From positions 31,645 to 95,644 of the IMG/VR virus record IMGVR_UViG_3300032235_000911: 64,000 bases of DNA. The stretch is one strand, 5' to 3'. The notes beneath the pieces were generated by a model. The model was not told where the DNA came from and made no database searches. It worked only from the letters and a program-made list of their open reading frames with translations. Positions within the stretch are counted from its first letter, which is position 1; each line of letters opens with the position of its first letter. The translations under genes and the position numbers were made by a program. Positions 49,757-63,023 of this stretch are shown here, one piece after another. This DNA comes from a virus.

Positions 49757-50274
49757 AGTGTTGCTCCAAGCCAAAAACGCCATGACTCGGGCATCTTGGA
49801 ATCAAAGTTAAAAAAGTATTCTACGTCATGAATATACGGAAGTATAGCAGGTTTTACAACCGGCTTAAGTAGTTTCATGCCGCAAGTGGCAAGAGATTTG
49901 TCGCCTTTGCGTTGATTGCAGGCAACACAGCATGTAACAACATTGGTCCAACTTGTTTTGCCGCCACGAGTCTTTGGAAGAACGTGGTCAAGTGTAAAAA
50001 CATTGATAGAAACATGGTTGGCGCAGTATTGGCAACGGCCCTCGTCGCGAATCCAAACATTTTTACGGGAGAAGCGCACGCTTTTGACACGGTTGCGCCG
50101 GGAAGCGTTGAAAACAACAACAGAAGGGATGCGCATAGAGGTAGAAGGGCTGCGGATTTCTTCTGTATACTCAGAAAGAATTTTTACCTTGCCAGAATAG
50201 ACAAGCGTAACGGCTTTTTCCCAAGGGATAAGCCCAAGAGGTTCATAGGTGTGACTTAGTGTTAGTACTTTCAT
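49753..50274 (-). CDS. HNH endonuclease (McrA/HNH_5-like)
   Basis: RDEGRCQYC..TLDHVLPKTRGG..NVVTCCVACNQRK; TTGCCA-17-TATAGT promoter upstream. Confidence 0.9.
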   Translation of the reverse strand: MKVLTLSHTYEPLGLIPWEKAVTLVYSGKVKILSEYTEEIRSPSTSMRIPSVVVFNASRRNRVKSVRFSRKNVWIRDEGRCQYCANHVSINVFTLDHVLPKTRGGKTSWTNVVTCCVACNQRKGDKSLATCGMKLLKPVVKPAILPYIHDVEYFFNFDSKMPESWRFWLGATL

Positions 50275-50329
50275 GGTTGTTCCTCACAGTTATGGCCACT
50301 ATAGCCCATTGTGGGGACAGTGGCAAGCG

Positions 50330-50551
50330 TTACTTTATTACACCCTTGGCATCGGGATCAAAATCTTTATTGATATGCCCGCAGTTGGTGCATGCAAAAG
50401 TAGCAACAGGAACAACTATTTCTTTGCCGCTTGGCGAAAGCAGGGCGCTTATTTTTTTAATAAGTGCAACTTCACGGAAAGTACGACCGGCGCAACTTTC
50501 GCAGACAACAGAAACAGCATTTTGGAGATCAATATTATTAGAAGAGTTCAT
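50330..50551 (-). CDS. zinc-ribbon protein
   Basis: CESC..CTNCGH. Confidence 0.7.
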   Translation of the reverse strand: MNSSNNIDLQNAVSVVCESCAGRTFREVALIKKISALLSPSGKEIVVPVATFACTNCGHINKDFDPDAKGVIK

Positions 50552-50601
50552 GCGATGTCCTTTCATAGCAATATAAATAGATTATACTGCAAATAAAAGG
50601 C

Positions 50602-50934
50602 TTATTTAATACTCATAAGTATCATGCCAAGAAATACAGCGGCAAGACCAACAAGTCGGTGGGTGCTTAGTTGCTCACCAAGTACAAAAAGAGCAGTTAT
50701 ATACCAACTGGCATGGAAGAAAAAAGTTTGAAATACGCTTGTATAGGTAAGAGAGAAGATATTAGAACGGAGTAGATAGGCGTATGTACTGGCTGTAACA
50801 ATGCTAAATAGGTAACTGGTCCACCAAGGGGACACACCGTCACGAATCCAGCGAGCATTGTGGGCGGCAATATAGCCTGCCGCCATTAAAAGTAGTGCTA
50901 TACCTACCGCTTTGAGCAAATTAGTATGGGTCAT
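50602..50934 (-). CDS. small 4-TM membrane protein, SMR/EamA-like
   Basis: four hydrophobic segments; LGEQLS..RLVGLAAVFLG. Confidence 0.65.
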   Translation of the reverse strand: MTHTNLLKAVGIALLLMAAGYIAAHNARWIRDGVSPWWTSYLFSIVTASTYAYLLRSNIFSLTYTSVFQTFFFHASWYITALFVLGEQLSTHRLVGLAAVFLGMILMSIK

Positions 50935-50970
50935 ATGGGGAGTATAGCACCAACGGTAAAATATTTATAC

Positions 50971-51222
50971 CTATCGCATTGGGCTATCGGGTTGTCCGGT
51001 GCGGGGTTTTGGCTTTTGGCCATCAAGAAGTGCCTGTAGTTTATCGGCAAACTCAGCAATCTCGACTTCATGGCCAGGAAAAGCATCAGTAATTTGACGA
51101 AGAGCCATTATGGCACTGTTGGCTTTAGAAACTTGCTCTGTATCATTGCCTGTTTGGAACTCTTGACCACGATCAAGTTCTTCTAAAATAAGTTTTTTAA
51201 GACTATCCCTGTTTAGTTTCAT
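50971..51222 (-). CDS. hypothetical protein
   Basis: MKLNRDSLKKLILEEL; AGGAG RBS; late-type motif upstream. Confidence 0.7.
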   Translation of the reverse strand: MKLNRDSLKKLILEELDRGQEFQTGNDTEQVSKANSAIMALRQITDAFPGHEVEIAEFADKLQALLDGQKPKPRTGQPDSPMR

Positions 51223-51259
51223 ACTATATAACTCCTATGCTGTATATAAGTAGTGTCTA

Positions 51260-51487
51260 CTATAAACCGCGTGCGAGATAATCAAGAAAAAAGTTGTAGT
51301 CTTCGTCAGAGGACCAGTCCAAACCATCAAGTTCTCCAAGAAAACTTTGTACACGGCCTTCATACATACCGATACCTTCAGCGATACGCCGACCAAGTTG
51401 CCTACGAACAGCCCCTCGATATAGTTGGCGACGATCAAACTGATCAACAATATCCATCACAACTGCAAGTTTACCCTCATCCAGCAT
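51260..51487 (-). CDS. hypothetical protein
   Basis: GGAGG RBS before ATG 51487; TTGCAA-17-TATAGA promoter upstream. Confidence 0.65.
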   Translation of the reverse strand: MLDEGKLAVVMDIVDQFDRRQLYRGAVRRQLGRRIAEGIGMYEGRVQSFLGELDGLDWSSDEDYNFFLDYLARGL

Positions 51488-51608
51488 AGTTATCCTCCAA
51501 GATAGGTAGTCTATACCATAAATAAGTACCGGTTGCAACCATTTTTTCGGCACATTTCCTACGTCGTCCCAAAACTGCCGAAATCTTATATCCCTTTGGC
51601 ACATAGAG

Positions 51609-51692
51609 AGAGAAAAAGTCCTAAATTTTCTTAGAGAATTTGTTCGACGATCCGACAAAAGAGAAAAAGTTTCAAAATTTCTTAGAGAATTT
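51609..51692. repeat. two imperfect 33-bp direct repeats at the arm divergence point
   Basis: AGAGAAAAAGTcctaaatTTTCTTAGAGAATTT (51609-51641) and AGAGAAAAAGTttcaaaaTTTCTTAGAGAATTT (51660-51692). Confidence 0.75.
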
Positions 51693-51830
51693 ATGCTTCG
51701 GCTATGCTTATAACGCCGTAAAAGACTTTCTCGCAGTAAGTGATTTAGCCCTTATCCCTCCACCCCTGCCTCCCCCTCCCCCCCTGCGTCAAATAAAAAA
51801 CAAAGTCAAGCTCAAAAAGGGGGAACAAAA

Positions 51831-51874
51831 AATAAAGGCCGTGCAAGGGACCGGCCCCTGCTGACCACCAAAAA
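51831..51874 (+). repeat. cassette-boundary palindrome copy 1 (right half only)
   Basis: core GGGACCGGCCCC 51847-51858, right arm CCACCAAAAA; TTGCAT 23 nt after the core. Confidence 0.8.
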
Positions 51875-51881
51875 TAAAACT

Positions 51882-51933
51882 TTGCATGGGGACGGGAAGT
51901 GTGGGATAAGACTCTCACGCCGCACGGTGCGGC
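51882..51933 (+). promoter_or_regulatory. sigma70-type promoter plus leader hairpin
   Basis: TTGCAT-17-GATAAG; GCCGC-ACGGT-GCGGC. Confidence 0.65.
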
Positions 51934-51946
51934 AAGGAGACAGGCG

Positions 51947-52183
51947 ATGAAGATTGATTCCCGCGAAGTGTATGGCGACGACGACGTGCGTGTTGACTGC
52001 GACTGCAACGCGGACAAGGCGTGCAACGAGTGCGTCGACGGTGGACTCTACGAAGGTGGGCAGTTGCCCCCGCCGCCTCCGTTCATCCTGCTTGACTCCC
52101 CCTTGACACCCGATGAGGCACGCGCTATGCACGCCCTCATGCACTGCGAAGACGAACAGCTCTGCACCTTCTGCAACCAGTAA
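51947..52183 (+). CDS. small Cys-rich acidic protein
   Basis: AAGGAG RBS; CDC..CNEC..HC..CTFC. Confidence 0.7.
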   Translation: MKIDSREVYGDDDVRVDCDCNADKACNECVDGGLYEGGQLPPPPPFILLDSPLTPDEARAMHALMHCEDEQLCTFCNQ

Positions 52184-52201
52184 CAGGAAAGGATAAAACA
52201 A

Positions 52202-52390
52202 ATGGCGAACGAACCGAAGTGCGGTGGCAGTCATACAAAGTACGACGGGTCATGGTGGGACAGGGATAGCCGTGGAATAGAAACGGCTCGCGTATGCGAT
52301 GAATGTATTGACGCTAAGCGAGCAAAGTATCGTCCAGGAATCTTTTGTAACCCAGACTACTGGACAGACGAGCAGGTTGACGGCGACTAA
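52202..52390 (+). CDS. small CxxC protein whose 3' half is duplicated beyond the HNH gene
   Basis: 62 aa; AAGGA RBS; DSRGIETARVCDEC..KYRP. Confidence 0.75.
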   Translation: MANEPKCGGSHTKYDGSWWDRDSRGIETARVCDECIDAKRAKYRPGIFCNPDYWTDEQVDGD

Positions 52391-53109
52391 CCAGAGTGTC
52401 TATTTCCTTTTTTAATATTATCTACAGCCGATAGCGGTTGAAGGTTATCCAACCCCCAGCAGAGGCGAAAGGCATCATCTGCTGGGGTTTCATATGCAAA
52501 CCAAGACTTTGGCTTTATATGGTCAACGTGCCAATATGTCCCATAGTTATCCCAAGTCATACCCTCCTTTAATAAAGGCTCAAGATGGGCAACCAGTTGT
52601 TCAAGACTATAGCCGACAAGTTCTTCCCAAGAGCGACCGCCTTTACTTTCCTTGAGAGATTTCCACAGCGCAGTCCCGATAGCATGATCTAGTTTGCTCT
52701 GAGGATTGTTCTTTCTTTTTTCCCTTGAATGTTTTTGTGCCTCTGCAAGCCGCCCAGACTCTTTGTATTTCTGGTTTGCCTTTGCTAACGCTCCACTCTC
52801 TTTATATTTTTTCAAGTATTCTTTTCGTTTTTCTTTGTATTCAGAGGTTTGCGCTCTAGCTTTCCTTTTTTCTTTATATCCCTCAGTTTGATAATATGTT
52901 TTACCATACTCCCTCTTTTGCTCTTTGTAATGTAGTGCCGCCTCTCTTATCTTTTTTTGTTCTTTATAGTGCAATGTCTGCCTTTGCGCTTTAAGCTTTT
53001 GTTTAATACATTCTTTGCATAATGTGCTCAGCCCGTCCGACTTATTCTGGTCTTTATAATATTCATTAGCGTTCTTGTCCGCCTTGCATTTATTGCATAT
53101 TTTGTTCAT
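52387..53109 (-). CDS. HNH homing endonuclease
   Basis: KICNKC..CKEC, MTWDNYG..WHVDHIKP..NLQPL..DNIKK; AT-rich, opposite strand to neighbours. Confidence 0.9.
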   Translation of the reverse strand: MNKICNKCKADKNANEYYKDQNKSDGLSTLCKECIKQKLKAQRQTLHYKEQKKIREAALHYKEQKREYGKTYYQTEGYKEKRKARAQTSEYKEKRKEYLKKYKESGALAKANQKYKESGRLAEAQKHSREKRKNNPQSKLDHAIGTALWKSLKESKGGRSWEELVGYSLEQLVAHLEPLLKEGMTWDNYGTYWHVDHIKPKSWFAYETPADDAFRLCWGLDNLQPLSAVDNIKKGNRHSG

Positions 53110-53185
53110 ATTGTTCCCTTTGCGGAATGCCGCGTGTATCGTTCATTATAACTAGTTTCTTTATTTGTTTAAACCATATTTATTT

Positions 53186-53320
53186 GACGCCCGTGGTATC
53201 CCGCTTGCCCGTGTGTGTATGGAATGCATCAACGTGAAGCTGGCAAAGTATCGGCCCGAAGTGTTGACCAACAGTAACTATGACTTGATGGATTGTCCCC
53301 TTGATGAGGATAGGTGGTAA
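53186..53320 (+). pseudogene. orphan 3' half paralogous to 52202-52390
   Basis: reads DARGIPLARVCMECINVKLAKYRPEVLTNSNY..*; no RBS or ATG; in-frame TAG at 53153. Confidence 0.75.
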
Positions 53321-53321
53321 C

Positions 53322-53594
53322 ATGAGCAATGATATCATTGATGTCCCATTCGTCAACCTAACCGAGAAGCGCATCAAGTGGGCAGGGTTGCGGGTTACTC
53401 TACCGTTCGTCGCGTTCCTGTTTGGGTTCCTTATCATCCCCGTCGCTGCGACCTGTATGGGGGAAGCGCCGCAACTCATGACTGATATCTATGACCGTGG
53501 GGCTTTTATCTGTGGGGTATTCAGCGTGCTGGGTCTTGCCTTTGCTCTTGGTACATATATATTCGCCCTGTGGTATAGCAGCCGCTACGAATAA
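53322..53594 (+). CDS. 2-TM membrane protein
   Basis: AGGTGG RBS; two hydrophobic helices. Confidence 0.75.
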   Translation: MSNDIIDVPFVNLTEKRIKWAGLRVTLPFVAFLFGFLIIPVAATCMGEAPQLMTDIYDRGAFICGVFSVLGLAFALGTYIFALWYSSRYE

Positions 53595-53612
53595 TGATAG
53601 CCCCGCCCTGCC

Positions 53613-53656
53613 AATATGGGGGGCAAAGGGGGCCGGCCCCTGCTGACCACTGAAAA
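53613..53656 (+). repeat. cassette-boundary palindrome copy 2
   Basis: core GGGGCCGGCCCC 53629-53640. Confidence 0.9.
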
Positions 53657-53662
53657 AAGAAG

Positions 53663-53716
53663 TTGCCCATCCTGCCCCACCCCTGTATAAAGACACCATC
53701 AGCGGCACGGAGCCGC
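53663..53716 (+). promoter_or_regulatory. sigma70-type promoter plus ANGGA leader hairpin
   Basis: TTGCCC-17-TATAAA; GCGGC-ACGGA-GCCGC. Confidence 0.75.
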
Positions 53717-53729
53717 AGGGAGAAGAAGG

Positions 53730-53816
53730 ATGCACAAGCCCAGCAAGTTGACCTTGACAGACATTCTCGGCTGCACTATGTTTATGGCGTTCTTCATCTC
53801 GCTGCTTTTCCTCTAG
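53730..53816 (+). CDS. 28-aa hydrophobic peptide
   Basis: MHKPSKLTLTDILGCTMFMAFFISLLFL; GGGAG RBS. Confidence 0.65.
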   Translation: MHKPSKLTLTDILGCTMFMAFFISLLFL

Positions 53817-53824
53817 GAGTCACC

Positions 53825-53896
53825 ATGCGCCGGTCCACGTTCCTCTCCATTCTTTATGTCACCCTCGTTGTCGGCGGTGCCTACCTTTTCACCTAA
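53825..53896 (+). CDS. 23-aa hydrophobic peptide
   Basis: MRRSTFLSILYVTLVVGGAYLFT; AGGAG RBS. Confidence 0.65.
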   Translation: MRRSTFLSILYVTLVVGGAYLFT

Positions 53897-53914
53897 TACC
53901 CGAAAGGAACTCCC

Positions 53915-53989
53915 ATGTTTCCCTACGCAATGGCAGCAGTTTGGGTCGTTACCGCAATCTTCAGCCTTTCACAGAATGGAGCAGAGTAA
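53915..53989 (+). CDS. 24-aa hydrophobic peptide
   Basis: MFPYAMAAVWVVTAIFSLSQNGAE; AAGGA RBS. Confidence 0.6.
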   Translation: MFPYAMAAVWVVTAIFSLSQNGAE

Positions 53990-54102
53990 TGATTCGCTCA
54001 ATCAAGCGATTCTTTGGCATCCCGCCTAATGTGTACGACCTTCCCTATCAGCAGCGCGTCTATATTGTCGCGCTTTCAACCGCAGTTCAGCGCATTAAAT
54101 AG
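53989..54102 (+). CDS. 37-aa peptide
   Basis: MIRSIKRFFGIPPNVYDLPYQQRVYIVALSTAVQRIK; GGAG RBS; TAATG coupling. Confidence 0.6.
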   Translation: MIRSIKRFFGIPPNVYDLPYQQRVYIVALSTAVQRIK

Positions 54103-54206
54103 GTTCTTTATATTTATTGCCTTTTATTATATTTTCTTTTGCCTCTGCCGCCTAATACTGGCATAACCACCCTGCCTCAATCACGAGGCTACGAAAGGGT
54201 CCGCTA

Positions 54207-54431
54207 ATGGGTAAAAAGAAGCAGGAGATTGCCCCTGTTCATCAACGAATCTTGAATCTTTACAAGGCTTTTACCCTTGTCAATGGTTATCAGCCCTCAT
54301 ATGTTCAAGTTGGGCAAGTTCTGAACATCAGCGGCGCGGCTGTTGGCAACCATATTCGGCAGATGGAACGGGCTGGTCTCGTTCGTCGTCCGCCGGAGAA
54401 GTGGGGCCGAGGTCTGACCCTCCTTCGTTAG
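54207..54431 (+). CDS. stand-alone LexA-like winged-helix DNA-binding domain
   Basis: QRIL..NGYQPSYVQVG..LNISGAAVGNHIRQMERAGLVRR..RGL; TTGCCT-17-CATAAC promoter upstream. Confidence 0.75.
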   Translation: MGKKKQEIAPVHQRILNLYKAFTLVNGYQPSYVQVGQVLNISGAAVGNHIRQMERAGLVRRPPEKWGRGLTLLR

Positions 54432-54450
54432 AGTAAGTCCCCGCCCAGCC

Positions 54451-54494
54451 TTTTTGGTGGGCAAACGGGGCCGGCCCTGCTCAACCACCAAAAA
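54451..54494 (+). repeat. cassette-boundary palindrome copy 3
   Basis: TTTTTGGTGG-N6-GGGGCCGGCCCT-N6-CCACCAAAAA (perfect 10-bp outer arms). Confidence 0.9.
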
Positions 54495-54500
54495 TAAAAG

Positions 54501-54557
54501 TTGCACGCTGCCCGTCAATCGGGGTATAAAGTCTTTCATACGGTGGATGGACCGCCG
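54501..54557 (+). promoter_or_regulatory. sigma70-type promoter plus ANGGA leader hairpin
   Basis: TTGCAC-18-TATAAA; CGGTGG-ATGGA-CCGCCG. Confidence 0.75.
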
Positions 54558-54569
54558 AGGAGACTGCCG

Positions 54570-54773
54570 ATGAGCGACAAGAAGTTGATTCCTAACCATT
54601 CAATGATTGACTATCGGCGTGGCGAGTATGCCGATGCTGTCACGCGTCTCCTCACAAATCTCGAATACGATAACAATCGTAAGAACCTTCCTCCCTACCT
54701 TCTCGAGATTGTAGATGATGCACTCGCAAAGCGTAAAGCGTGGATGAACGAGCCGCTCTATCGTGAGGGGTAA
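54570..54773 (+). CDS. hypothetical protein
   Basis: GAGGAG RBS; MSDKKLIPNH... Confidence 0.75.
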   Translation: MSDKKLIPNHSMIDYRRGEYADAVTRLLTNLEYDNNRKNLPPYLLEIVDDALAKRKAWMNEPLYREG

Positions 54774-54780
54774 ATAAAAG

Positions 54781-54830
54781 TTGCACGCTGGCAGGAAGTG
54801 TGAGATAACGCCTCTGCCCGATGGACGGGC
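54781..54830 (+). promoter_or_regulatory. sigma70-type promoter plus ANGGA leader hairpin
   Basis: TTGCAC-17-GATAAC; GCCCG-ATGGA-CGGGC. Confidence 0.7.
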
Positions 54831-54844
54831 AACGGAGACAGACG

Positions 54845-55099
54845 ATGGAAACGCCCAGCCGCCCCAATGCTCACATTCTTGACCTTTCAAACACGCTTGC
54901 CAACTGCCGTCCCATTGTTTCGCGTGATTGGCGGATTGTCAACGGTAAGGTCCACCTCATTACGGTTGTTCGCGATGGTCGCCCAGGCGTAGGAGCCTAT
55001 GAGGCAATCATCGTGAATGAAACGCAGTCCTGCCAGACTTGGGGAAAGAACGCTCGCACCCTGCTCGCCGCTGCCAAGCGTCGCGCTGGCACCCTGTAA
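54845..55099 (+). CDS. hypothetical protein
   Basis: GGAG RBS; METPSRPNAH... Confidence 0.75.
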   Translation: METPSRPNAHILDLSNTLANCRPIVSRDWRIVNGKVHLITVVRDGRPGVGAYEAIIVNETQSCQTWGKNARTLLAAAKRRAGTL

Positions 55100-55106
55100 A
55101 ATGTGC

Positions 55107-55161
55107 TTGCATCCCGTTAAGCAGTCTGCTAAATAGTCTCAACATGCTGCATGGAGCAGCA
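55107..55161 (+). promoter_or_regulatory. sigma70-type promoter plus ANGGA leader hairpin
   Basis: TTGCAT-17(TGn)-TAAATA; TGCTGC-ATGGA-GCAGCA. Confidence 0.65.
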
Positions 55162-55172
55162 GGAGAACGTCA

Positions 55173-55481
55173 ATGACCGTCGAGAGCAACAAGTTTTTTG
55201 CCCCTGTCAACTGCGCGATTATCAAGGATGGGGACGGTACAAAGCGTCACGCTGAGTTCGTCTATGCAAAGGACATTCCGACTGAGTTCCTGCCCGATGG
55301 TCTGAACAGTCTTGAACTGGAGAACAAGCGGCACCCGTGGAATGTGAATGGTCTGGCGTGGGATATGAGCGTCAATGCTTGGCGCAATATGAAGAACGCC
55401 GAGAATGTCAAGTCCTCGCTTGAACTGTTCACCTATTACAACCTGCCTGACAAGATGTATTCCTGCTGGCGGGAGGGGTAA
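55173..55481 (+). CDS. hypothetical protein
   Basis: 102 aa; AGGAG RBS. Confidence 0.75.
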   Translation: MTVESNKFFAPVNCAIIKDGDGTKRHAEFVYAKDIPTEFLPDGLNSLELENKRHPWNVNGLAWDMSVNAWRNMKNAENVKSSLELFTYYNLPDKMYSCWREG

Positions 55482-55484
55482 CAT

Positions 55485-55694
55485 ATGAGCAAACTGACGG
55501 CAAGGCAGAACGAAACCCTCCAAGTTATCAAAGCACATATCAAAAAGAATGGTTATCCTCCGACCATTCGTGAGATTGGTGCGGCGATGGGTATTGTTTC
55601 GCCCAATGGGGTTGCTGAACACTTGGACCACTTGGAAGGCAAGGGCTACATATCCCGCAATCATAGAATATCACGAGCAATCGTCGTACTATGA
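55485..55694 (+). CDS. stand-alone LexA N-terminal DNA-binding domain
   Basis: LTARQ..GYPPTIREIGAAMGIVSPNGVAEHLDHLEGKGYISR..SRAI; no peptidase S24 domain. Confidence 0.9.
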   Translation: MSKLTARQNETLQVIKAHIKKNGYPPTIREIGAAMGIVSPNGVAEHLDHLEGKGYISRNHRISRAIVVL

Positions 55695-55712
55695 TTGAAA
55701 CCCCGCCCCGCC

Positions 55713-55756
55713 TTTTTGGGGGGCAAAGGGGGCCGGCCCCTGCCAGCCACTGAATA
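55713..55756 (+). repeat. cassette-boundary palindrome copy 4
   Basis: core GGGGCCGGCCCC 55729-55740. Confidence 0.9.
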
Positions 55757-55762
55757 TTTTAT

Positions 55763-55815
55763 TTGTCACCGGCACGGACTCCCGCTATAACGGTTTCACG
55801 GTCGATGAACGACCG
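55763..55815 (+). promoter_or_regulatory. sigma70-type promoter plus leader hairpin
   Basis: TTGTCA-17-TATAAC; CGGTCG-ATGAA-CGACCG. Confidence 0.75.
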
Positions 55816-55828
55816 ATGGAGACAGAAG

Positions 55829-56146
55829 ATGCCGAAGTTGACCAGCAACCGCGCCGCCGCTGCACTCACCCACGGTCGCAAGTTCAGCAGCAAGAACACG
55901 AAGGTCGATTCATCCGGCCTTTACCTCTTCGGCAATCATATTGCCCGCGACGCTGGTGAGGGCCATGTTGCAATCACCAACCGTGGGCATTTCACCCTTA
56001 CCACGAAGGACCGGCTGAACGCCATTCCTAATGTTTCAATCTATCAGAAGAACTATCAATGGTTCTTGAATGATAAGGCGTGGGACGGTGAGTGGGTTAT
56101 TGTTGCGCCCGATGGTACGTGGGCACCCGAAGTCAAGATTTGGTAA
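55829..56146 (+). CDS. hypothetical phage early protein
   Basis: GGAG RBS; LFGNHIA..TLTTKDRLN..QKNYQW. Confidence 0.8.
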   Translation: MPKLTSNRAAAALTHGRKFSSKNTKVDSSGLYLFGNHIARDAGEGHVAITNRGHFTLTTKDRLNAIPNVSIYQKNYQWFLNDKAWDGEWVIVAPDGTWAPEVKIW

Positions 56147-56170
56147 TAGAGTAAACCCCGCCCCCACCGA

Positions 56171-56214
56171 TATTTGGTGGGCAAGCGGGGCCGGCCCCTT
56201 CTGACCCCTACTTT
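56171..56214. repeat. cassette-boundary palindrome copy 5 (convergent junction, no promoter)
   Basis: core GGGGCCGGCCCC 56187-56198, hairpins on both sides. Confidence 0.9.
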
Positions 56215-56231
56215 TGGGGTCGGGCTACATT

Positions 56232-56300
56232 CTATCGCCAGTTTAGAATGATACCGGCACCGGCAACAAATGCAGCAAAGAATGACATAACAAGTGGCAT
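56232..56300 (-). CDS. 22-aa hydrophobic peptide
   Basis: MPLVMSFFAAFVAGAGIILNWR; AGGAG RBS. Confidence 0.6.
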   Translation of the reverse strand: MPLVMSFFAAFVAGAGIILNWR

Positions 56301-56308
56301 CAAATCTC

Positions 56309-56389
56309 CTATCGACAGAGGAATCGTACAACCCCCACCGTCGTCACAAGCACAGTGGGGAGGAACGCACCAACAAGGAAATAAATCAT
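56309..56389 (-). CDS. 26-aa hydrophobic peptide
   Basis: MIYFLVGAFLPTVLVTTVGVVRFLCR; GGAG RBS. Confidence 0.55.
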   Translation of the reverse strand: MIYFLVGAFLPTVLVTTVGVVRFLCR

Positions 56390-56472
56390 TAGTGCAGGAC
56401 TCCACCGTTATTGCGGTATTCTTCAAGGCTGATGATATCTGCTTCCGTTGCCGGTCGGGGAGGCGGTTCGGA

Positions 56473-56703
56473 CTACAAGCCAGCAGCAAGAAGCGTTTCA
56501 TGAACGAACTGGGTAAGAATACCCGTCAGCGTTGCAACATCATTCATACAGGCAGCGGCAAACCCGTCCTTCTGGACCTGCTCAATGTCGCCAGCGTTAA
56601 CAGCGGTGTAATCGTCCACAACCTCTGCAACCCGCTCCGAGAACTGGGTAAGGTGGCCAAGCAGCGTCATCTGGACTTCTTCCTTTGTCAACTTGTCACT
56701 CAT
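56473..56703 (-). CDS. hypothetical helical protein
   Basis: GGAG RBS; MSDKLTKEEVQ... Confidence 0.7.
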   Translation of the reverse strand: MSDKLTKEEVQMTLLGHLTQFSERVAEVVDDYTAVNAGDIEQVQKDGFAAACMNDVATLTGILTQFVHETLLAAGL

Positions 56704-56704
56704 G

Positions 56705-56788
56705 TTACTCTCCGATGCTGGCAAGTGCCAGCGTTGAAATGAACCCTACCACAAGGAAGGTGAGACTGTCAAACACGAACTGCACCAC
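56705..56788 (-). CDS. 27-aa hydrophobic peptide
   Basis: GTG start; MVQFVFDSLTFLVVGFISTLALASIGE; AGGAGG RBS; TTGGCA-17-TAAGTT promoter upstream. Confidence 0.6.
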   Translation of the reverse strand: MVQFVFDSLTFLVVGFISTLALASIGE

Positions 56789-56845
56789 CTCTTGCCTCCT
56801 GAGTGAGCGTAACTTACAGCATCCCCATGCCCCTGCCAACTGTTT

Positions 56846-56889
56846 TTTTTGGTGGTTGACGGGGGCCGGCCCCTCTGCCCCCCTACTTC
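56846..56889 (-). repeat. cassette-boundary palindrome copy 6
   Basis: core 56862-56873; TTGGCA 22 nt from the core on the minus strand. Confidence 0.9.
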
Positions 56890-56911
56890 TGGGCGGGCGT
56901 CGGGACTAGGT

Positions 56912-57589
56912 CTATCCGAAGAACTTTTCCTGCGCCGTCGTCAGATTCCGGCCACCGTGATACACCAGCCCGATTGCGATATCGCCTTCAATGGCGGGGA
57001 TATCATTCACATTGCCGTCAATGTAGAACGCCGCCTGTCGGGCCTCATCATTCGAGAATATGCGCGAATGGGGCTTGCCAAGGTTCACAAGGTTGTCGTA
57101 CTTACCGCCCAATGACTGCGTGATTCGCAGGTTCGCAGGGGCAACCGATAGGTCAAGGTGGAGACTCTTAGTGTATGCGTAGAAGATAACATCGGGGTAT
57201 GCACGGGCAACCTTGCACCATGCGTCAAGGTAGCTCTGGGAATAGAAGTCACCGGCATCATGCAACCGGACGACATTGTACGGCTTACGCTTGCGGGGTG
57301 TCTTGACAACCAGCGCGGCAAGGTCCGCGATGATAAGGTCCGCGAAGTCCGACCGCTGCGAAAGCGTCAGGTTGTGGTGACGCGCCGCGACAACATTCTT
57401 GAAACGATAGGTTCCCTGCTTTGCATAGCAGACACCGCGACAAGCCAGCGCGGCGGGGCAAGTGTTCATCTTCTCGCCGTTCATGGTAAAGTCTACATCG
57501 GCAGGAAGCCCGAAGCCGACGACGCGATACTCGCCGCCCGAAGTCTTCAACAGCTTTGCGTTGCCTTCCGTCCAAACCGCGTTCGCCAT
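56912..57589 (-). CDS. Gp88-like protein (radical-SAM-like Cys motif)
   Basis: GNAKL, TCPAALACRGVCYA, RLHDAGDF, YAYTKS. Confidence 0.8.
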   Translation of the reverse strand: MANAVWTEGNAKLLKTSGGEYRVVGFGLPADVDFTMNGEKMNTCPAALACRGVCYAKQGTYRFKNVVAARHHNLTLSQRSDFADLIIADLAALVVKTPRKRKPYNVVRLHDAGDFYSQSYLDAWCKVARAYPDVIFYAYTKSLHLDLSVAPANLRITQSLGGKYDNLVNLGKPHSRIFSNDEARQAAFYIDGNVNDIPAIEGDIAIGLVYHGGRNLTTAQEKFFG

Positions 57590-57602
57590 CGTCGTTCTCC
57601 AT

Positions 57603-57655
57603 CGGTGTCCGTCACCGTGAAAAGACTTATCTCACAAGTCGGGGTGGGGTGGCAA
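57603..57655 (-). promoter_or_regulatory. sigma70-type promoter plus ANGGA leader hairpin
   Basis: TTGCCA-18-GATAAG; CGGTG-ACGGA-CACCG. Confidence 0.7.
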
Positions 57656-57661
57656 ACTTTT

Positions 57662-57705
57662 TTTTTGGGGGTTGATAGGGGCCGGCCCCGCTTGCCCACT
57701 TTTTT
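57662..57705 (-). repeat. cassette-boundary palindrome copy 7
   Basis: core 57678-57689. Confidence 0.9.
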
Positions 57706-57735
57706 TCGTGAGCAGGGGGCCGTTCTATTTATAGA

Positions 57736-58158
57736 CTAATCAAACTGCCGCTCATATTCCTCAATTGCAGCATCCTTTATGCTCTCCCATTCCTCTGCTG
57801 TGAACATTGAGGTATTGATAACAGCAGCGGGCTGGAGGCTATCATCAAGGAGGTGAATTTGAATGATATCAACATCGTGGCCTGGACCGTCAATGTAATC
57901 GTTGACAGCGGCATAGACACGAAAGAGGTCAGCATCACGTTCCCAATCAACAACAACATTGTGACTATCGGAAACATGGGGAAGAACGGCAGCAGGCATT
58001 TTTTTTCCTCGTGCAGCATACTTGTTTGTATGCTTGCGGTTATCGCGAAAGGTACCAGCCTTTGTAACGCCATTGATAATGACAACCATAAAAGGGTCAC
58101 GGCTCTTGACGGAGCGAGGGTTGACCTTTATGGACTTCACGTTACGCACGGCTGGCAC
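57736..58158 (-). CDS. hypothetical protein (basic N-half, acidic C-half)
   Basis: 140 aa ORF; internal GAGGA-ATG may be a second start. Confidence 0.65.
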   Translation of the reverse strand: MPAVRNVKSIKVNPRSVKSRDPFMVVIINGVTKAGTFRDNRKHTNKYAARGKKMPAAVLPHVSDSHNVVVDWERDADLFRVYAAVNDYIDGPGHDVDIIQIHLLDDSLQPAAVINTSMFTAEEWESIKDAAIEEYERQFD

Positions 58159-58177
58159 CTTTCACATTTAGATGATA

Positions 58178-58405
58178 CTACGGAACAACAATCTTGGCAA
58201 TACGGAAACGGTTATTCTTGTTTGTATTGCGGAACTCGCGGCTGATGTCTCGGGCGACCTTGCGGGTACGCAGGACCAGCGGACCCTTTTCGTCCACAAT
58301 GGTCTGCCAAGTCGGGGAGGCACTACCCCCCTGCCCCTTCTCCTTCCGGCTAACCTGCACGGCCCACATCGTATTGTGCTTCGTCGTCTTGAACTTGTAC
58401 GGCAT
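58178..58405 (-). CDS. small basic hypothetical protein
   Basis: AGGAGG RBS. Confidence 0.7.
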   Translation of the reverse strand: MPYKFKTTKHNTMWAVQVSRKEKGQGGSASPTWQTIVDEKGPLVLRTRKVARDISREFRNTNKNNRFRIAKIVVP

Positions 58406-58425
58406 CTCTCTATCCTCCTGCCCCT

Positions 58426-58680
58426 CTATCGGGTGGGCGTCCGATTGTGAACGTGTGTGAACTCACCCACGGTCCAACCGTGGGCTTCAAGTGTCTCTTT
58501 GTATGCCACAGCAACGCTCTGCGCGTCAAGGGCAATCATTTCGTCCGTCCAACTATCTTCATTGTCTGGCAACTTGCTGGGGCGTGTCACCATTTCAAGG
58601 TCAAGTGCATAGCACACTTCACCAAATGAACTAACGCCAGCCGTTCTCTTGGAACTCAGAATCTCCCTCGTCGTCGGCAT
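58426..58680 (-). CDS. hypothetical protein
   Basis: GAGGA RBS; MPTTREILSS... Confidence 0.6.
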   Translation of the reverse strand: MPTTREILSSKRTAGVSSFGEVCYALDLEMVTRPSKLPDNEDSWTDEMIALDAQSVAVAYKETLEAHGWTVGEFTHVHNRTPTR

Positions 58681-58903
58681 CTTCGTTTTCCTCTGCGTCC
58701 TCAAGACGCTCTGCGGCTGCACGGGCAAGGTTCCTCATACCATACTGCTCGTTTGGAGTCCAGTCCTCAATGTCGGCATCGCTGCCGTCCTCTGCTTCGA
58801 TGCGCTCAATCTTTACTACACCGTTGGAATAGCGGGTGGCATGGACCGTAAACTCTCCGTCCTTGTCACGATAGGGAAAACTTACGGTTGTCGCAATACT
58901 CAT
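58631..58903 (-). CDS. acidic hypothetical protein
   Basis: GAGGA RBS; MSIATTVSFPY... Confidence 0.7.
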   Translation of the reverse strand: MSIATTVSFPYRDKDGEFTVHATRYSNGVVKIERIEAEDGSDADIEDWTPNEQYGMRNLARAAAERLEDAEENEDADDEGDSEFQENGWR

Positions 58904-58905
58904 TT

Positions 58906-59142
58906 TTATTCTTCCTCGGCCAGCATGGCCCACAGACTGTTCTTTGTAGCAGGTTCACGAACCTCTGTCAACTGCTTTCGGAGTGACAGAACCCGATGCT
59001 CCATGACTATATTGAGCGATTGCCAATGCACTTCGACCATATCAAAACCTTCCTCCTCGTACTGGCAAACAATAACTCCCTTCCCATGCTCGGGATGGAT
59101 GATGATGGTCCCGCTGCGGAGGCTTGGCTCGCTGTTCGTCAT
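58906..59142 (-). CDS. small SH3-like protein, probably leaderless
   Basis: GTIIIHPEHGKGVIV..VEVHW; ATG 7 nt after the -10 box. Confidence 0.7.
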   Translation of the reverse strand: MTNSEPSLRSGTIIIHPEHGKGVIVCQYEEEGFDMVEVHWQSLNIVMEHRVLSLRKQLTEVREPATKNSLWAMLAEEE

Positions 59143-59185
59143 GAGTGGCTTTATCTCACAGGCAACCCCCCGCTGTCACCAAGTT

Positions 59186-59229
59186 TTTTTAGTGGGCGGT
59201 GGGGGCCGGCCCCGCTTGCCCCCTGTTTT
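59186..59229 (-). repeat. cassette-boundary palindrome copy 8
   Basis: core 59202-59213; GTGACA 22 nt away (minus), TTGACA 24 nt away (plus). Confidence 0.9.
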
Positions 59230-59278
59230 CTGCAGGCTTGACAAGGTGGCGCGGTGCGTTATGTTTTAGGGATAGAAC

Positions 59279-59298
59279 GCCCCCCCTTTCGGGGGGGC
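59279..59298. terminator. GC-rich hairpin downstream of 59316-59660
   Basis: GCCCCCCC-TTTC-GGGGGGGC (GAAA tetraloop on the minus strand). Confidence 0.55.
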
Positions 59299-59315
59299 TG
59301 ACGCTTGCCCTACGA

Positions 59316-59660
59316 TTAGGGGTTAGCGGAAATCTGCTCCTCGCTCTCGGCCTCCTCCAGCGCAGCCAGTTTAGCCTGAAGCGCGGCAAACTGGTCGGCA
59401 ACATCGTTTTCGACCTCCGGCACCGGCTCCTCCGTAGAGGATTCACTCTCCGGCGAGAGTACGCTAACCGTATCGGTTGGGAAGTACCCACCATTACGTC
59501 CACGGCGGCAGTTGACGGAACCATCGGAGGTCAGCTCCTTGAGGACGGACAGGGCATCCTCACCGTGGGTGCTGATGATTGCACTCTTGGGGCAAGGACG
59601 CTTGTTCTCCTGCTGATACTCGGCAACGAACTGGAGAAGGTCAGACTTGGAAACGGCCAT
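59316..59660 (-). CDS. winged-helix protein with an acidic/coiled-coil tail
   Basis: LKELTSDGSVNCRRGRNGGY wing (Rrf2-like); TTGCAG-17-TAGAGT promoter upstream. Confidence 0.7.
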   Translation of the reverse strand: MAVSKSDLLQFVAEYQQENKRPCPKSAIISTHGEDALSVLKELTSDGSVNCRRGRNGGYFPTDTVSVLSPESESSTEEPVPEVENDVADQFAALQAKLAALEEAESEEQISANP

Positions 59661-59742
59661 CGGGAACCTCTACGCTGGACTGTGCCAGCTTGTTGGGGGC
59701 TGTATTGCCCTCTCAACTTGACGGACTCTAGCAGACTTACGG

Positions 59743-59886
59743 TTAGGCTGCAAGTGGAAAAAGGAAATCTTCACCGCACTCTGGACATAAGCAGACCTCT
59801 TTGGTAAAGAACATATCGTTCTCGTCGAACACCTCTGTTTCGCCAATCTCTACCGCTTCGCAGTGGTCGCAATCAACGGCTTCCAT
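59743..59886 (-). CDS. 47-aa zinc-ribbon protein (not in ORF track)
   Basis: MEAVDCDHC..CLCPECGEDFLFPLAA; GGAGG RBS; TAGACA-17-TATTAT promoter upstream. Confidence 0.7.
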   Translation of the reverse strand: MEAVDCDHCEAVEIGETEVFDENDMFFTKEVCLCPECGEDFLFPLAA

Positions 59887-59948
59887 CCCTACCTCCCTCC
59901 TGCTGATGGTTGAATAATACCCCCACTCCCTCCTGCTGTCTACCCCTA

Positions 59949-59992
59949 TTTTTGGTGGGCAGGGGGGGCCGGTCCCTCTCTACCCCTATATC
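59949..59992. repeat. cassette-boundary palindrome copy 9 (divergent junction, promoter on both sides)
   Basis: core GGGGCCGGTCCC 59965-59976; TAGACA 22 nt away (minus) and TTGACC 23 nt away (plus). Confidence 0.88.
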
Positions 59993-60035
59993 TTTTCTCT
60001 TGACCCTGCCCCCCGTTCTGCCCTACTATCTCTCC

Positions 60036-60245
60036 ATGAGCCAACGAGTCCTGCCGGAAGTCGGTGAGTTATGGGTCTATTGCGACGAAGGTGAGCGGCC
60101 ATTTCTGTTTTTGCAACGGTTGCCAACACCCTCATGGGGCGACCATGAGGTTGGCGCACTCTATCGCGCACTAGATATAAAGTATGGTAGTATTAGAGAA
60201 ATAGAAGTAGGACAGTATCTCCAAAACTATCACAAGGTAGGATAA
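60036..60245 (+). CDS. EVGELW-family SH3-like paralog 1, probably leaderless
   Basis: LPEVGELW..FLFL; ATG 6 nt after TACTAT. Confidence 0.75.
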   Translation: MSQRVLPEVGELWVYCDEGERPFLFLQRLPTPSWGDHEVGALYRALDIKYGSIREIEVGQYLQNYHKVG

Positions 60246-60246
60246 C

Positions 60247-60483
60247 ATGGCAGACTTGACTGACAAGCAGAAGCAGGAAATGTGGAAGAAGTGTCCTTTC
60301 AAGTTGGGCGATACGGTACTTGGCAACGATGATAAGCCTTGGATTATTATGGATATTGTGGAGTGGCATAGTTTTTCTACTTGGACAATGAAAATCTATG
60401 ACCATCAAACTACAGAGCAGCGTGATGAACTGCTTGACATCTACAGTAACCAAGTGCTAGATGAGAACTTTTACGAGGGATAA
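60247..60483 (+). CDS. small SH3/KOW-like protein
   Basis: PFKLGDTVL..WIIMDI. Confidence 0.7.
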   Translation: MADLTDKQKQEMWKKCPFKLGDTVLGNDDKPWIIMDIVEWHSFSTWTMKIYDHQTTEQRDELLDIYSNQVLDENFYEG

Positions 60484-60484
60484 G

Positions 60485-60667
60485 ATGCCGCTGGAACCCG
60501 AAGCTGGCGAGTTATGGAAGTGGTTTGGAGGCCAGCATTTTCTACTGCTGCAAAAGAAATCCCAGTACGGTGACAAGTTTGTGGTATTAGAACTTGCAAC
60601 GGGTAGCATAAAGGATATGTACTTTCACAAAAGCGAGATAGGTAGTTCATGGATAAAGGTTGCATAA
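60485..60667 (+). CDS. EVGELW-family paralog 2
   Basis: PEAGELWKW..FLLL..WIKVA. Confidence 0.75.
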   Translation: MPLEPEAGELWKWFGGQHFLLLQKKSQYGDKFVVLELATGSIKDMYFHKSEIGSSWIKVA

Positions 60668-60669
60668 AC

Positions 60670-60843
60670 ATGGAGGTTGGCGAGGTATGGAGATGGGTGG
60701 ATGAGAACCCCCTCCTTCTCCTGCTAAGGGAAGAAGAAATGGACGGCGGTATATTTTTTCTCTGTCTTGACTTGACGACAGAGGAGAAGTTCAGTATGGT
60801 TTTCCATCCAGCACTCATGGACCGCTGGACGAGGTTAGCATGA
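60670..60843 (+). CDS. EVGELW-family paralog 3
   Basis: EVGEVWRW..LLLL..WTRLA. Confidence 0.7.
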   Translation: MEVGEVWRWVDENPLLLLLREEEMDGGIFFLCLDLTTEEKFSMVFHPALMDRWTRLA

Positions 60844-61172
60844 CCTGTGTAGAGTGTGGTGACGAGTACGGATGGGACAAGAACCGTGCCAAGTTGGGCG
60901 GCAAGCGTACCCACTGTGGCGACTGTGCCGACGAAACCAGCGTCCGTTATGTTGGCGTTTCGGCTGGCGAAGGTAAGATGAGTGCCGTTCAAGTGTTGAA
61001 GTTTGATAATCCTGCTGACCGTGAGGCGTATGTTGAGGCTTGGAAGGTCAATAGCGGACTCTACAAAGGCAAGAGTTGCCAGATTGGTCGTGGACTTACT
61101 AGCACCCCATCTGTCAAGTTCCAGACCGTTACAACCAACAACCCCAATGCTAACCATAAAGGTAAAGCATGA
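60840..61172 (+). CDS. zinc-finger hypothetical protein
   Basis: CVECG..HCGDCA. Confidence 0.75.
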   Translation: MTCVECGDEYGWDKNRAKLGGKRTHCGDCADETSVRYVGVSAGEGKMSAVQVLKFDNPADREAYVEAWKVNSGLYKGKSCQIGRGLTSTPSVKFQTVTTNNPNANHKGKA

Positions 61173-61378
61173 ATATCCCAGACCGCTTACCAGAAGTGGG
61201 CGAAATATGGGGATGGGGAAACTCTAAAAAATATGTCAAGTTTCTTGTGCTTGGCATAGAACATGATAGTAACAAAGACCTATTGCCATACACAATGAGA
61301 GGAATAGTATTGGACTCAAAAGAAACAGTTGTATCTGATAGATACAGTTTTCATTCATACTGGTCGAGGATAGCGTGA
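61169..61378 (+). CDS. EVGELW-family paralog 4
   Basis: LPEVGEIW..FLVLGI..WSRIA. Confidence 0.75.
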   Translation: MNIPDRLPEVGEIWGWGNSKKYVKFLVLGIEHDSNKDLLPYTMRGIVLDSKETVVSDRYSFHSYWSRIA

Positions 61379-61590
61379 CAATCATTCCCGAAATCGGTGA
61401 ACTGTGGGAGTACCGCAACGGGGGGCAACACCTTTGCGTGCTTGTGCTTGGCGTGAGTGCCGCCATAAAAACGGATGGAGTAGAGATTCGGTGCATAAAC
61501 ATAATAAATAGCGGCTTTTCAAGGGACAGCGAATATTGGTGTTTCTCAACGGAGGAACACCAGCGTTCAAACTGGAAGAAGGTGGCGTGA
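61375..61590 (+). CDS. EVGELW-family paralog 5
   Basis: PEIGELW..VLVLGV..WKKVA. Confidence 0.75.
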   Translation: MTIIPEIGELWEYRNGGQHLCVLVLGVSAAIKTDGVEIRCINIINSGFSRDSEYWCFSTEEHQRSNWKKVA

Positions 61591-61820
61591 TGGCGAAGCG
61601 TAAAGCAGCAGAGATTGGCGAGTTGTGGATTCGCAGCATTGGCGGCGAACAGGAAGGCTTACTCATACTGGGGATTGAGAAGAATCACCGTGAGATTGGA
61701 TTGGATTATTATTCTTACACGGTACTTGAGCCAATGACAGGGCAGACCTTCACCTTTGATAAAATCTTTCCTATCCGTGAAAGTTACACGGCTGGTACGC
61801 GATGGAAACGGGCAGATTAG
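61590..61820 (+). CDS. EVGELW-family paralog 6
   Basis: AEIGELW..LLILGI..WKRAD. Confidence 0.75.
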   Translation: MAKRKAAEIGELWIRSIGGEQEGLLILGIEKNHREIGLDYYSYTVLEPMTGQTFTFDKIFPIRESYTAGTRWKRAD

Positions 61821-61858
61821 GTGGTTTGGCGGGGCCGGCCCCCCTTGACCCCTATTTT
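61815..61858 (+). repeat. cassette-boundary palindrome copy 10
   Basis: core 61831-61842; TTGACC-18-CATAAG starts 23 nt after the core. Confidence 0.9.
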
Positions 61859-61916
61859 TTCCTGCTTGACCCCTGCTCCCCGTTTATGGCATAAGACTGG
61901 ACATCGGAGGTGACGC

Positions 61917-62132
61917 ATGAGTGTTGAGGCTACGCTTGCACAGATGGCTGGCGAGGATAGCGCGGAAACAAAGGGATGGGACGATGGCATGGATTTTGCC
62001 AATACTCTCAAGATGGGAGTTCTTGAAGAACTGCGTGAGTTGCGCCGTCTGAACTACCCAGACGCCTACATCGACGCATGGAAAGCCTCTGCAAGTAGTA
62101 TTTTTTACACCTTGACTGACGAGAGCAAGTAG
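61917..62132 (+). CDS. hypothetical acidic protein
   Basis: GGAGG RBS. Confidence 0.75.
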   Translation: MSVEATLAQMAGEDSAETKGWDDGMDFANTLKMGVLEELRELRRLNYPDAYIDAWKASASSIFYTLTDESK

Positions 62133-62169
62133 GATAAAGTTGCATTTCACCCTGCAACGGAGGTAAGTC

Positions 62170-62958
62170 ATGGCTCGCAAGAAGGCAGCGATTCAACCGT
62201 TTGATTTTTCGGATTTCTCCTGCGATACGGATAAGTTGACGCTGGACAAGTATAAAACCGATGCCGACATTCTTGCACGGTTGGAGTTTATCGACAAGAA
62301 CAAGGAACATGGTGAATATTACCTGAAGCGAAACATTCAGTTTATGAAGAACGGTGAGACCTTCCAGTCATTCAACAAGTGGACAAAGCGTAATATTCTG
62401 CAAGTCCTTTGGAGGTATGAGGACACGCTTCAGCAGCAGGAAACCGTCCGTTTCCGTGAGTGGTACGATAAGCGTGAGGACGCGCAGCAGGCATGGCGCG
62501 AGTGCTGGTCCTCCATGTACGGGCTGCACAGTTGGCAGGGTTATTTCAACAATGGCACCTATTCCGCACAGGAAACACGGGACGAATGGGCCAAGTTGGA
62601 AACCGCTGGTCCCTCTGACCCCTGTATGTGGGATGAATTTCTCTGTAACTACGCTGTAAAAAGTTATGTGGAACTGCACCGCAATCCTAAGTATGAGATT
62701 GGCGACCTTGTGCTGCTCCGTAAGGCATACATTGGAAGCTGGCGTTATGACCCCGATACGGAACTTGATATTGCGATTCCCCGTCTTGGCACCATCATGG
62801 GTTACAAGGACGAAACAGGCGGCAAGCGCAAGAGTTCGTCAAGTGCTGGTAGCCGCACCGTCTCAGTCCTGTGGCTTGGAAAGAATGATATCATTGATGT
62901 AATGGAGAAGACTATCAAGTTGGAATGTCGCAAGGGTCACAAGATGGGCAAGGTCTAA
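62170..62958 (+). CDS. hypothetical protein with a C-terminal SH3/KOW-like domain
   Basis: 262 aa; GGAGG RBS; PKYEIGDLV..LGTIM..VSVLW. Confidence 0.8.
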   Translation: MARKKAAIQPFDFSDFSCDTDKLTLDKYKTDADILARLEFIDKNKEHGEYYLKRNIQFMKNGETFQSFNKWTKRNILQVLWRYEDTLQQQETVRFREWYDKREDAQQAWRECWSSMYGLHSWQGYFNNGTYSAQETRDEWAKLETAGPSDPCMWDEFLCNYAVKSYVELHRNPKYEIGDLVLLRKAYIGSWRYDPDTELDIAIPRLGTIMGYKDETGGKRKSSSSAGSRTVSVLWLGKNDIIDVMEKTIKLECRKGHKMGKV

Positions 62959-62979
62959 CCCCTACTCCCTCTCCTGCTG

Positions 62980-63023
62980 GAAACGGTGGGCAGAGGGGGC
63001 CGGCCCCCACCGCACCCTATTTT
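62980..63023 (+). repeat. cassette-boundary palindrome copy 11
   Basis: core 62996-63007 (14-bp palindrome 62995-63008); TTGACC-17-TATGTT starts 23 nt after the core. Confidence 0.9.

Follow-up and report, generated by a model that had tools for sequence, protein, structure and literature searches.

Palindromic composite elements as probable recombination joints between early-gene cassettes of a phage with a T4-type portal

Background

What placed a block of minus-strand genes inside a plus-strand arm, with a palindrome at each of its two strand switches? The question is raised by a 64-kb stretch of phage DNA (the window), which forms the end of a linear IMG/VR contig of 95.6 kb (completeness about 49%) and in which 56232-59886 codes on the minus strand between two copies (copies 5 and 9) of a composite element centred on a 12-bp palindromic core. 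An earlier inspection of the letters (the sequence-only reading) took the two strand switches for products of an inversion through the cores, on the argument that a symmetric crossover core allows either orientation. Comparison with relatives indicates that the arrangement of the block is old and fixed, and that it is neither a recent nor a switchable inversion. Our preferred explanation, to which we assign a probability of roughly 0.65, is that the window carries regulatory cassettes like the PeSL elements of T4-type phages, lying in the early arm of a phage with a T4-type portal and acting as recombination joints, with the block itself fixed. Direct evidence covers the anatomy of the elements, the conservation of the junctions and the position of breakpoints within elements; the mechanism we infer from these.

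Results and discussion

Anatomy of the elements

The core GGGGCCGGCCCC (at most one mismatch) occurs 11 times, all within 51847-62996, as compared with an expectation of 0.01 in shuffled sequence, and no further copy is found in the rest of the 95.6-kb contig. It is laid out as G4-CCGG-C4, a 12-bp palindrome, and is flanked by arms that are themselves partly palindromic. Every core is the centre of a larger composite element, the parts of which follow one another along transcription as a gene stop, a C-run/G-run hairpin, the arm GGnGGGCAAAG, the core, a second arm (approximately TGCTGACCACC), an A- or T-tract and a -35/-10 promoter. Read outward from the core, the 22 half-elements sort into a gene-end class and a promoter class, and in every promoter half an A- or T-tract separates the -35 box from the palindrome arm. 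A consensus scan finds 25 promoter-like sites (10.8 expected), including both promoters of copy 9. Nearly every larger intergenic gap of the arm holds an element, and the core is kept at junctions of every type (convergent, divergent and co-directional); two other strand switches, on either side of an HNH/EndoVII-like endonuclease gene (52387-53109), are without a palindrome. The flanking copies differ beyond the 12-bp core, the longest exact matches that they have in common being 8-23 nt.

Predicted RNA folds around copy 5 (either strand) and copy 7 have z values of -3.2 to -4.5, and z is not significant around copies 3 and 9. The folds of copies 5 and 7 have the C-run upstream of the inner hairpin base-paired to the 5' half of the core; at copy 5 this is so on both strands, each half-core pairing with the C-run beyond its inner hairpin (z of -4.5 and -3.7). 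A half-core is predicted by these folds to be the closing strand of the adjoining gene-end hairpin.

The descriptive part of the sequence-only reading is borne out, with corrections (coordinates of all features are collected in Table 1). Homologues, Pfam matches and the core scan agree that a minus-strand block lies within a plus-strand arm and that both switches fall at a palindrome. Copy 5 does consist of two end halves around a perfect core (its hairpins are CCACC...GGTGG on the left and GACCCC-TACTTTT-GGGGTC on the right); both of its halves, 5L and 5R, are closest to the gene-end class, and the promoter scan finds no promoter-like site nearby. Copy 9 is composed, as described, of two promoter halves (9L and 9R are closest to the promoter class), with TAGACA-17-TATTAT on the minus strand at 59942-59914 and TTGACC-18-TACTAT on the plus strand at 60000-60029, but its core, GGGGCCGGTCCC, is asymmetric, with one mismatch, and is thus not perfect.

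This junction anatomy is not diagnostic of inversion. Palindromes at both strand switches are unsurprising because nearly every sizeable gap carries one, and a convergent junction has two end halves, and a divergent junction two promoter halves, because of gene orientation alone. Flipping the block would, as had been pointed out, restore ordinary end-plus-promoter elements on paper, but the same is true of any strand switch in such an array. The further argument, that a perfect core at a promoterless junction is hard to explain by an activator-only role, loses its force if the half-cores close the end hairpins as predicted: a core would then stand at promoterless copy 5 because a convergent junction needs both half-cores, which together make the whole palindrome. 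Moreover, half types do not strictly follow strand switches. Copy 8 is a double-promoter element despite lying within the co-directional block, its right half (59238-59265, plus strand; TTGACA-16-TATGTT, 10 of 12 consensus matches) pointing in the antisense direction into gene I at its 3' end.

This half is conserved in two distant relatives, where it likewise adjoins the 3' end of gene I (L017, approximately 9815-9860, and L127, approximately 10703-10760), and it could give rise to antisense RNA or to convergent transcription over gene I. Copies 5 and 7 carry a 23-nt exact inverted repeat made of arm plus core (56177-56199 versus 57677-57699), the longest inverted match of the nine element pairs compared. 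The repeat flanks genes A, B and GP88, the piece that relatives carry in differing orientations, and is a candidate recombination substrate, which we do not count as evidence.

Orientation of the block among relatives

Comparison loci (designated by L numbers) were taken from IMG/VR and JGI metagenomes by alignment-based search, and sequencing runs were compared as assembled Logan contigs. The genes of the window were placed on the loci by tblastn, and gene orientation was read from those homologues, because strand maps built from greedy longest open reading frames (ORFs) are too noisy in GC-rich DNA. The loci compared leave aside the long contigs that bear the closest homologues of the GP88-family gene of the block (P0006-P0009, 86-88% identity).

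Homologues of genes D to I are found in L154, L016, L127, L017, L097, L094 and L093. In L154 (GP88 75% identical) all 12 of the 12 shared genes have the relative orientation that they have in the window. The window's arrangement also holds in L016/L121, L127 and L017: the homologues of 60840 and 62170 run opposite to genes D to I, and the portal-side anchors 49753 and 50602 run the same way as these genes. Contigs of about 90% identity from other studies bridge the junctions in the same arrangement, copy 9 in X2 record 10 and X5 record 21, and copy 5 in X5 record 18. An independent assembly of the source run gives the whole 10 kb as in the window, with one difference, and the run shows a single arrangement (in assembled contigs, which drop rare variants).

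Orthologues of the copy-9 junction are present in L127 (element at 11425) and L017 (element at 9137); the alignment takes in the two promoters and the two start codons, and the core is again the asymmetric GGGGCCGGTCCC (the T variant). With orthologues in these two loci, the junction is older than lineages whose GP88 proteins share only about 58% identity. Relatives further removed (L012, L021, L099, L013, L152 and others) have no recurrent palindrome; in them the homologues of 60840, GP88, 52202, D and the anchors all point the same way, in the preserved order anchors < 52202 < GP88 < 60840. By this outgroup polarity, which draws on few genes, the flanking plus-strand arms would be derived and the block would have the outgroup orientation. 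One of the palindrome-free relatives, L021, has ordinary promoter/hairpin repeats.

The sequence-only reading had suggested comparing synteny among relatives, and had itself taken a fixed orientation as evidence against a flip; the orientation of the block is fixed in all covering relatives.

Inversion and relocation of the GP88 cassette

The GP88 cassette within the block, bounded by palindromes, is found both ways round. Its orientation in the window, L154 and L016 is opposite to that in L097, L094, L093 and L092, and its orientation in L017 and L112 is opposite to that in L127. In L097 (GP88 91% identical in amino acids, 86% in nucleotides) GP88 and D converge, 3' end to 3' end: positions 1-471 align reversed to window 57382-56912 and positions 574-905 forward to 57756-58090, and the GP88|D junction between them holds one lineage-specific palindromic element between two end hairpins. 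The convergent GP88|D arrangement recurs in L094, L093 and L092, making, with L097, four independent, diverged contigs from four samples.

A different position is seen in L017 and L112, where GP88 is placed between I and F in their orientation, and in L127, where it has the same place but is inverted. When L127 is aligned with L017, the flanks align plus/minus and the GP88 cassette plus/plus, and the alignments overlap only inside elements, at L127 9859-9902 and 10674-10729 (cores 9875 and 10691). On close view the outer flanks retain the core together with its two arms, so that the breakpoints fall at the inner edges of the palindromes. A crossover at the centre of the 12-bp core was also considered, and tracing the half-cores through L127 and L017 failed to place it there. 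In the GP88 tree the members of two sister pairs (window/L097 and L127/L017) differ in orientation, for which at least two changes are needed.

Whole cassettes also change place. L112 and L016 have cassettes bounded by GGGCTAGCCC in different order, and their GP88 cassettes (L112:736-1451, L016:9937-10655), although differently positioned, are 94.7% identical, with neighbours at 76-84%. That GP88 is far more similar than its neighbours points to exchange of whole cassettes, and a single cassette appears to have been transferred recently. Homology of the window to contigs from other lakes begins or ends at cores 56187, 59213 and 55743. Gain, loss, replacement and reordering have their boundaries at motifs in L112/L016, in L127/L017, in window/L097 and in the other-lake contigs, and each of five independent rearrangement comparisons shows exactly one palindrome per junction, with none lost or doubled. 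Our calls of rearrangement exclude joints with short sides (30-46 nt) located on the repeated elements themselves.

These comparisons support the conclusion that palindrome-bounded single cassettes sit either way round on an evolutionary time scale. The proposal that a symmetric core allows either orientation thus survives for the GP88 cassette, which occurs both ways with its breakpoints in elements; as a crossover site, the symmetric core is not supported for the block between copies 5 and 9, and the breakpoints at the inner edges in L127/L017 do not place the crossover in the 12-bp core itself.

As a separate observation, other-lake contigs (runs X2, X3 and X5) skip, replace and reorder cassettes between copies 2 and 3 (53600-54800); most of these joints lie on short element stretches and were left out of the count.

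The core is uniform within each genome and differs between related genomes (CCGG centre, CTAG centre and others). It is GGGGCCGGCCCC in the window, GGGCTAGCCC in L154, L016, L112, L093 and L094, GGGRCCGRYCCC in L127 and L017, and approximately GGGGACGCCTCCC in L097, a pattern suggestive either of gene conversion, and hence concerted evolution, or of a binding protein that evolves along with the core.

A model of cassette exchange

We propose that, over evolutionary time, the elements would serve as preferred recombination joints, as PeSLs do. A palindromic centre would permit two elements to pair in either orientation, after which cassettes could be deleted, inserted, moved or re-inserted flipped. 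At the palindromes, cassettes may be exchanged by homologous or short-homology recombination or else be excised and re-inserted, and an excised cassette could re-enter either way round. GP88 would then be found in both orientations and at two positions because palindromic joints pair either way. A search for serine and tyrosine recombinases (PF00239, PF00589) gives no match in the 95.6-kb contig, which at about 49% completeness leaves room for such a gene elsewhere in the genome.

Comparison with known systems

The closest likeness is to the PeSLs (promoter-early stem-loops) of T4-type myoviruses, which consist of a sigma-70 promoter, an AT-rich tract upstream of it and a polyG/polyC stem-loop, which have terminator and promoter activity, recombine between neighbouring copies to yield mini-circles, and vary in motif from lineage to lineage (Arbiol et al. 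2010, PMC2839356; Comeau et al. 2014, PMC4122927). Like them, the elements described here are repeated, intergenic, composite motifs between small early genes without known relatives (ORFans), and cluster among such genes in a contig with a T4-type portal. They have a predicted sigma-70-like promoter with an A/T-rich tract upstream and a G-run/C-run stem-loop (11 cores, and the folds of copies 5 and 7); their sequence varies with phage lineage; and the boundaries of insertions, deletions and replacements between relatives lie at the motifs. The differences are that the stem-loop here is a strict 12-bp palindrome located upstream of the promoter, between end hairpin and A/T-tract, whereas in phi1 and RB49 it is usually between or over the -35 and -10 boxes (PMC2839356); that the array here is bidirectional; and that relatives here show cassette inversion, the present phage being known from sequence alone. 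In PMC2839356 and PMC4122927 the string 'inver' occurs only in 'inverse PCR', and inversion at PeSL-type elements appears to be new.

The G- and C-segments inverted by Gin, Cin and Hin, and the R64 shufflon, resemble the GP88 cassette in that a segment bounded by inverted repeats occurs in either orientation and a flip changes its co-orientation with its neighbours. Unlike these systems, the present contig has no recombinase gene that we could find, both orientations are seen here only between diverged lineages, and the sites are full regulatory elements at every cassette junction. Integrons with their attC sites likewise have small single-gene cassettes, imperfectly palindromic and variable sites, and a changing order. 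Their cassettes, however, are promoterless and depend on a common Pc, whereas those described here each have a predicted promoter half of their own; the contig has no IntI-type integrase (no PF00589 match), and the array belongs to the early region of a phage whose portal is of T4 type. No attI/Pc platform was noticed in the arm, although no specific search for one was made. The linker or boundary sequences of modular theory (Susskind and Botstein; the nin region of lambdoid phages) are also short and conserved, and have been proposed to channel recombination at module boundaries. To our knowledge they are not palindromic promoter/terminator units, and we know of no described link between them and inversion.

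PeSL-type elements are the best-documented linkers that channel modular shuffling in large lytic phages, and have so far been tied to deletion, insertion and replacement. The freshwater lineage described here adds PeSL-like elements with a strict palindrome, together with natural variants in which single cassettes are flipped and relocated. If our reading is correct, a palindromic linker lifts the orientation constraint on cassette exchange and would help to explain bidirectional, mosaic early regions.

Evaluation of alternative explanations

The observation that cassettes are inverted at such elements in relatives, together with one palindrome at each junction and junction halves of the predicted kinds, is also what would be seen if copies 5 and 9 had served, or still served, to flip the 56.2-59.9 kb block by a crossover in their symmetric 12-bp cores, possibly as a site-specific switch that exchanges the genes served by each promoter. 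We consider this very unlikely: neither the orientation nor the two junctions vary in any covering relative or near-identical contig, the copy-9 junction persists with its core variant at 58% GP88 identity, and the outgroups implicate the arms, not the block. The inverted crossover sites do not match in any case (the exact inverted match of copies 5 and 9 is only 8 nt, and the copy-9 core is mismatched), the resolved breakpoints lie at element edges and not at the core centre, and the contig (49% complete) has no tyrosine or serine recombinase. That the orientation differences are assembly artefacts is scarcely credible. A de Bruijn graph can leave undecided the orientation of a segment that has a palindromic repeat at each end, but the exact matches between flanking copies are short (8-23 nt), and metagenome-assembly k-mers are in general longer than this. 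Given these short matches, and given that inverted GP88 recurs in four diverged contigs from four samples, assembly error is unlikely; the independent assembly of the source run, with its one difference in 10 kb, argues in the same direction.

A purely regulatory role (terminator or attenuator plus operator plus promoter, perhaps the site of a dimeric phage protein), with breakpoints coinciding with elements merely since events that cut genes were lost, accounts well for half-cores that form part of end hairpins, for a core kept alike at convergent, divergent and co-directional junctions, and for a core that is uniform per genome and differs between genomes (GGGGCCGGCCCC, GGGCTAGCCC and others), as expected of a cognate binding protein. 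It leaves aside the retention of one palindrome per junction in all five rearrangement comparisons, the much greater similarity of the GP88 cassette than of its neighbours in L112 and L016, and the experimental demonstration of recombination between the analogous PeSLs (PMC2839356), and we judge it unlikely. Less probable still, in our estimate, is that the cores are crossover sites of a dedicated recombination activity that flips and transposes promoter-gene cassettes during infection, an activity that might come from the missing half of the genome or from an HNH/EndoVII-like nuclease acting on extruded cruciforms; were it so, a lytic phage with a T4-type portal would have a shufflon- or integron-like system generating population-level variety in early-gene order and orientation.

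Several points weigh against the reading that we prefer, that of PeSL-like recombination joints around a fixed block. The match of breakpoints to elements is partly expected because alignments tend to end near gene boundaries, where the elements sit. Recombination is deduced from assembled contigs, and rare alternative junctions may be present in the source population. The L127 arrangement is that of a single contig, and the polarity argument, by which the arms and not the block differ, uses few shared genes. Promoter and terminator activity of the elements are predictions, and a simple terminator scan does not call the elements intrinsic terminators.

Genes and setting of the array

In the window, 1-50 kb is a minus-strand arm with a GC content of 33-40%, containing tail genes, PhoH and glycosyltransferases. 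From approximately 51.8 kb onward the GC content is 48-54%, and small genes are densely packed, mostly without a known family. The step between the structural arm and the early cassette arm, at approximately 50000-52000, is not a chimeric join, because relatives keep the same anchor genes beside such arms. A match to the Portal_T4 profile (3e-77) lies in the contig upstream of the minus-strand arm of the window; the Pfam model for Gp23 has no match in the contig, but it has none in control genomes either. Homologues of GP88 are abundant in lake metagenomes. The 14-kb arm has no match among GenBank phages by megablast, a single-protein search of IMG/VR gives no match, and a scan of IMG/VR for the arm-plus-core pattern yields isolated matches in two unrelated contigs only.

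Pfam and PHROG give no significant match for nine of the ten block genes, gene J having one marginal PHROG match (E 0.0056). Genes A and B have no homologue among the fetched loci and are about 91% identical in contigs from other lakes; gene J likewise has no homologue among the fetched loci and is taken from the ORF list. To the right of the block, the gene at 60840-61172 is on the plus strand and has homologues in relatives.

Table 1. Features of the minus-strand block and its junctions (window coordinates; a period marks a feature without assigned strand)
Feature	Position	Strand	Description
Last plus-strand gene left of block, Kyano_Gp96-like	55763-56146	+	Pfam PF23790 at 2.5e-12; homologue in L154
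Copy 5, convergent junction	56157-56226	.	Perfect core 56187-56198, gene-end hairpin on each side
Gene A	56232-56501	-	Small ORFan between copies 5 and 6
Gene B	56473-56703	-	Small ORFan between copies 5 and 6
Copy 6 core	56862-56873	-	Ordinary minus-oriented element: GP88 end half, then gene B promoter
GP88-family gene	56912-57589	-	225 aa; Pfam PF17338 at 2e-44; between copies 6 and 7
Copy 7 core	57678-57689	-	Ordinary minus-oriented element: gene D end half, then GP88 promoter
Genes D, E, F, G, H, I, J	57736-59886	-	Minus-strand block
Copy 8 core	59202-59213	.	Left, minus-strand promoter for genes H to D; right, plus-strand promoter-like half
Copy 9, divergent junction	59914-60029	.	Two promoter halves; core 59965-59976 with 1 mismatch
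First plus-strand gene right of block	60036-60245	+	ATG at 60036; ORF list

Among the small genes of the block, gene I (59316-59660, minus strand, 114 aa) is conserved most widely; its minus frame is widely conserved and the antisense frame is not. By eye it seems to have a small basic amino-terminal domain followed by an acidic tail, with no match in Pfam or PHROG. Its product is a candidate for a DNA-binding protein that regulates the elements.

Two HNH/EndoVII-like endonuclease genes, both on the minus strand, lie at 49753-50274 and 52387-53109. The latter is antisense within the plus-strand arm, and its homologues vary among relatives in position, copy number and orientation, with two copies in L016.

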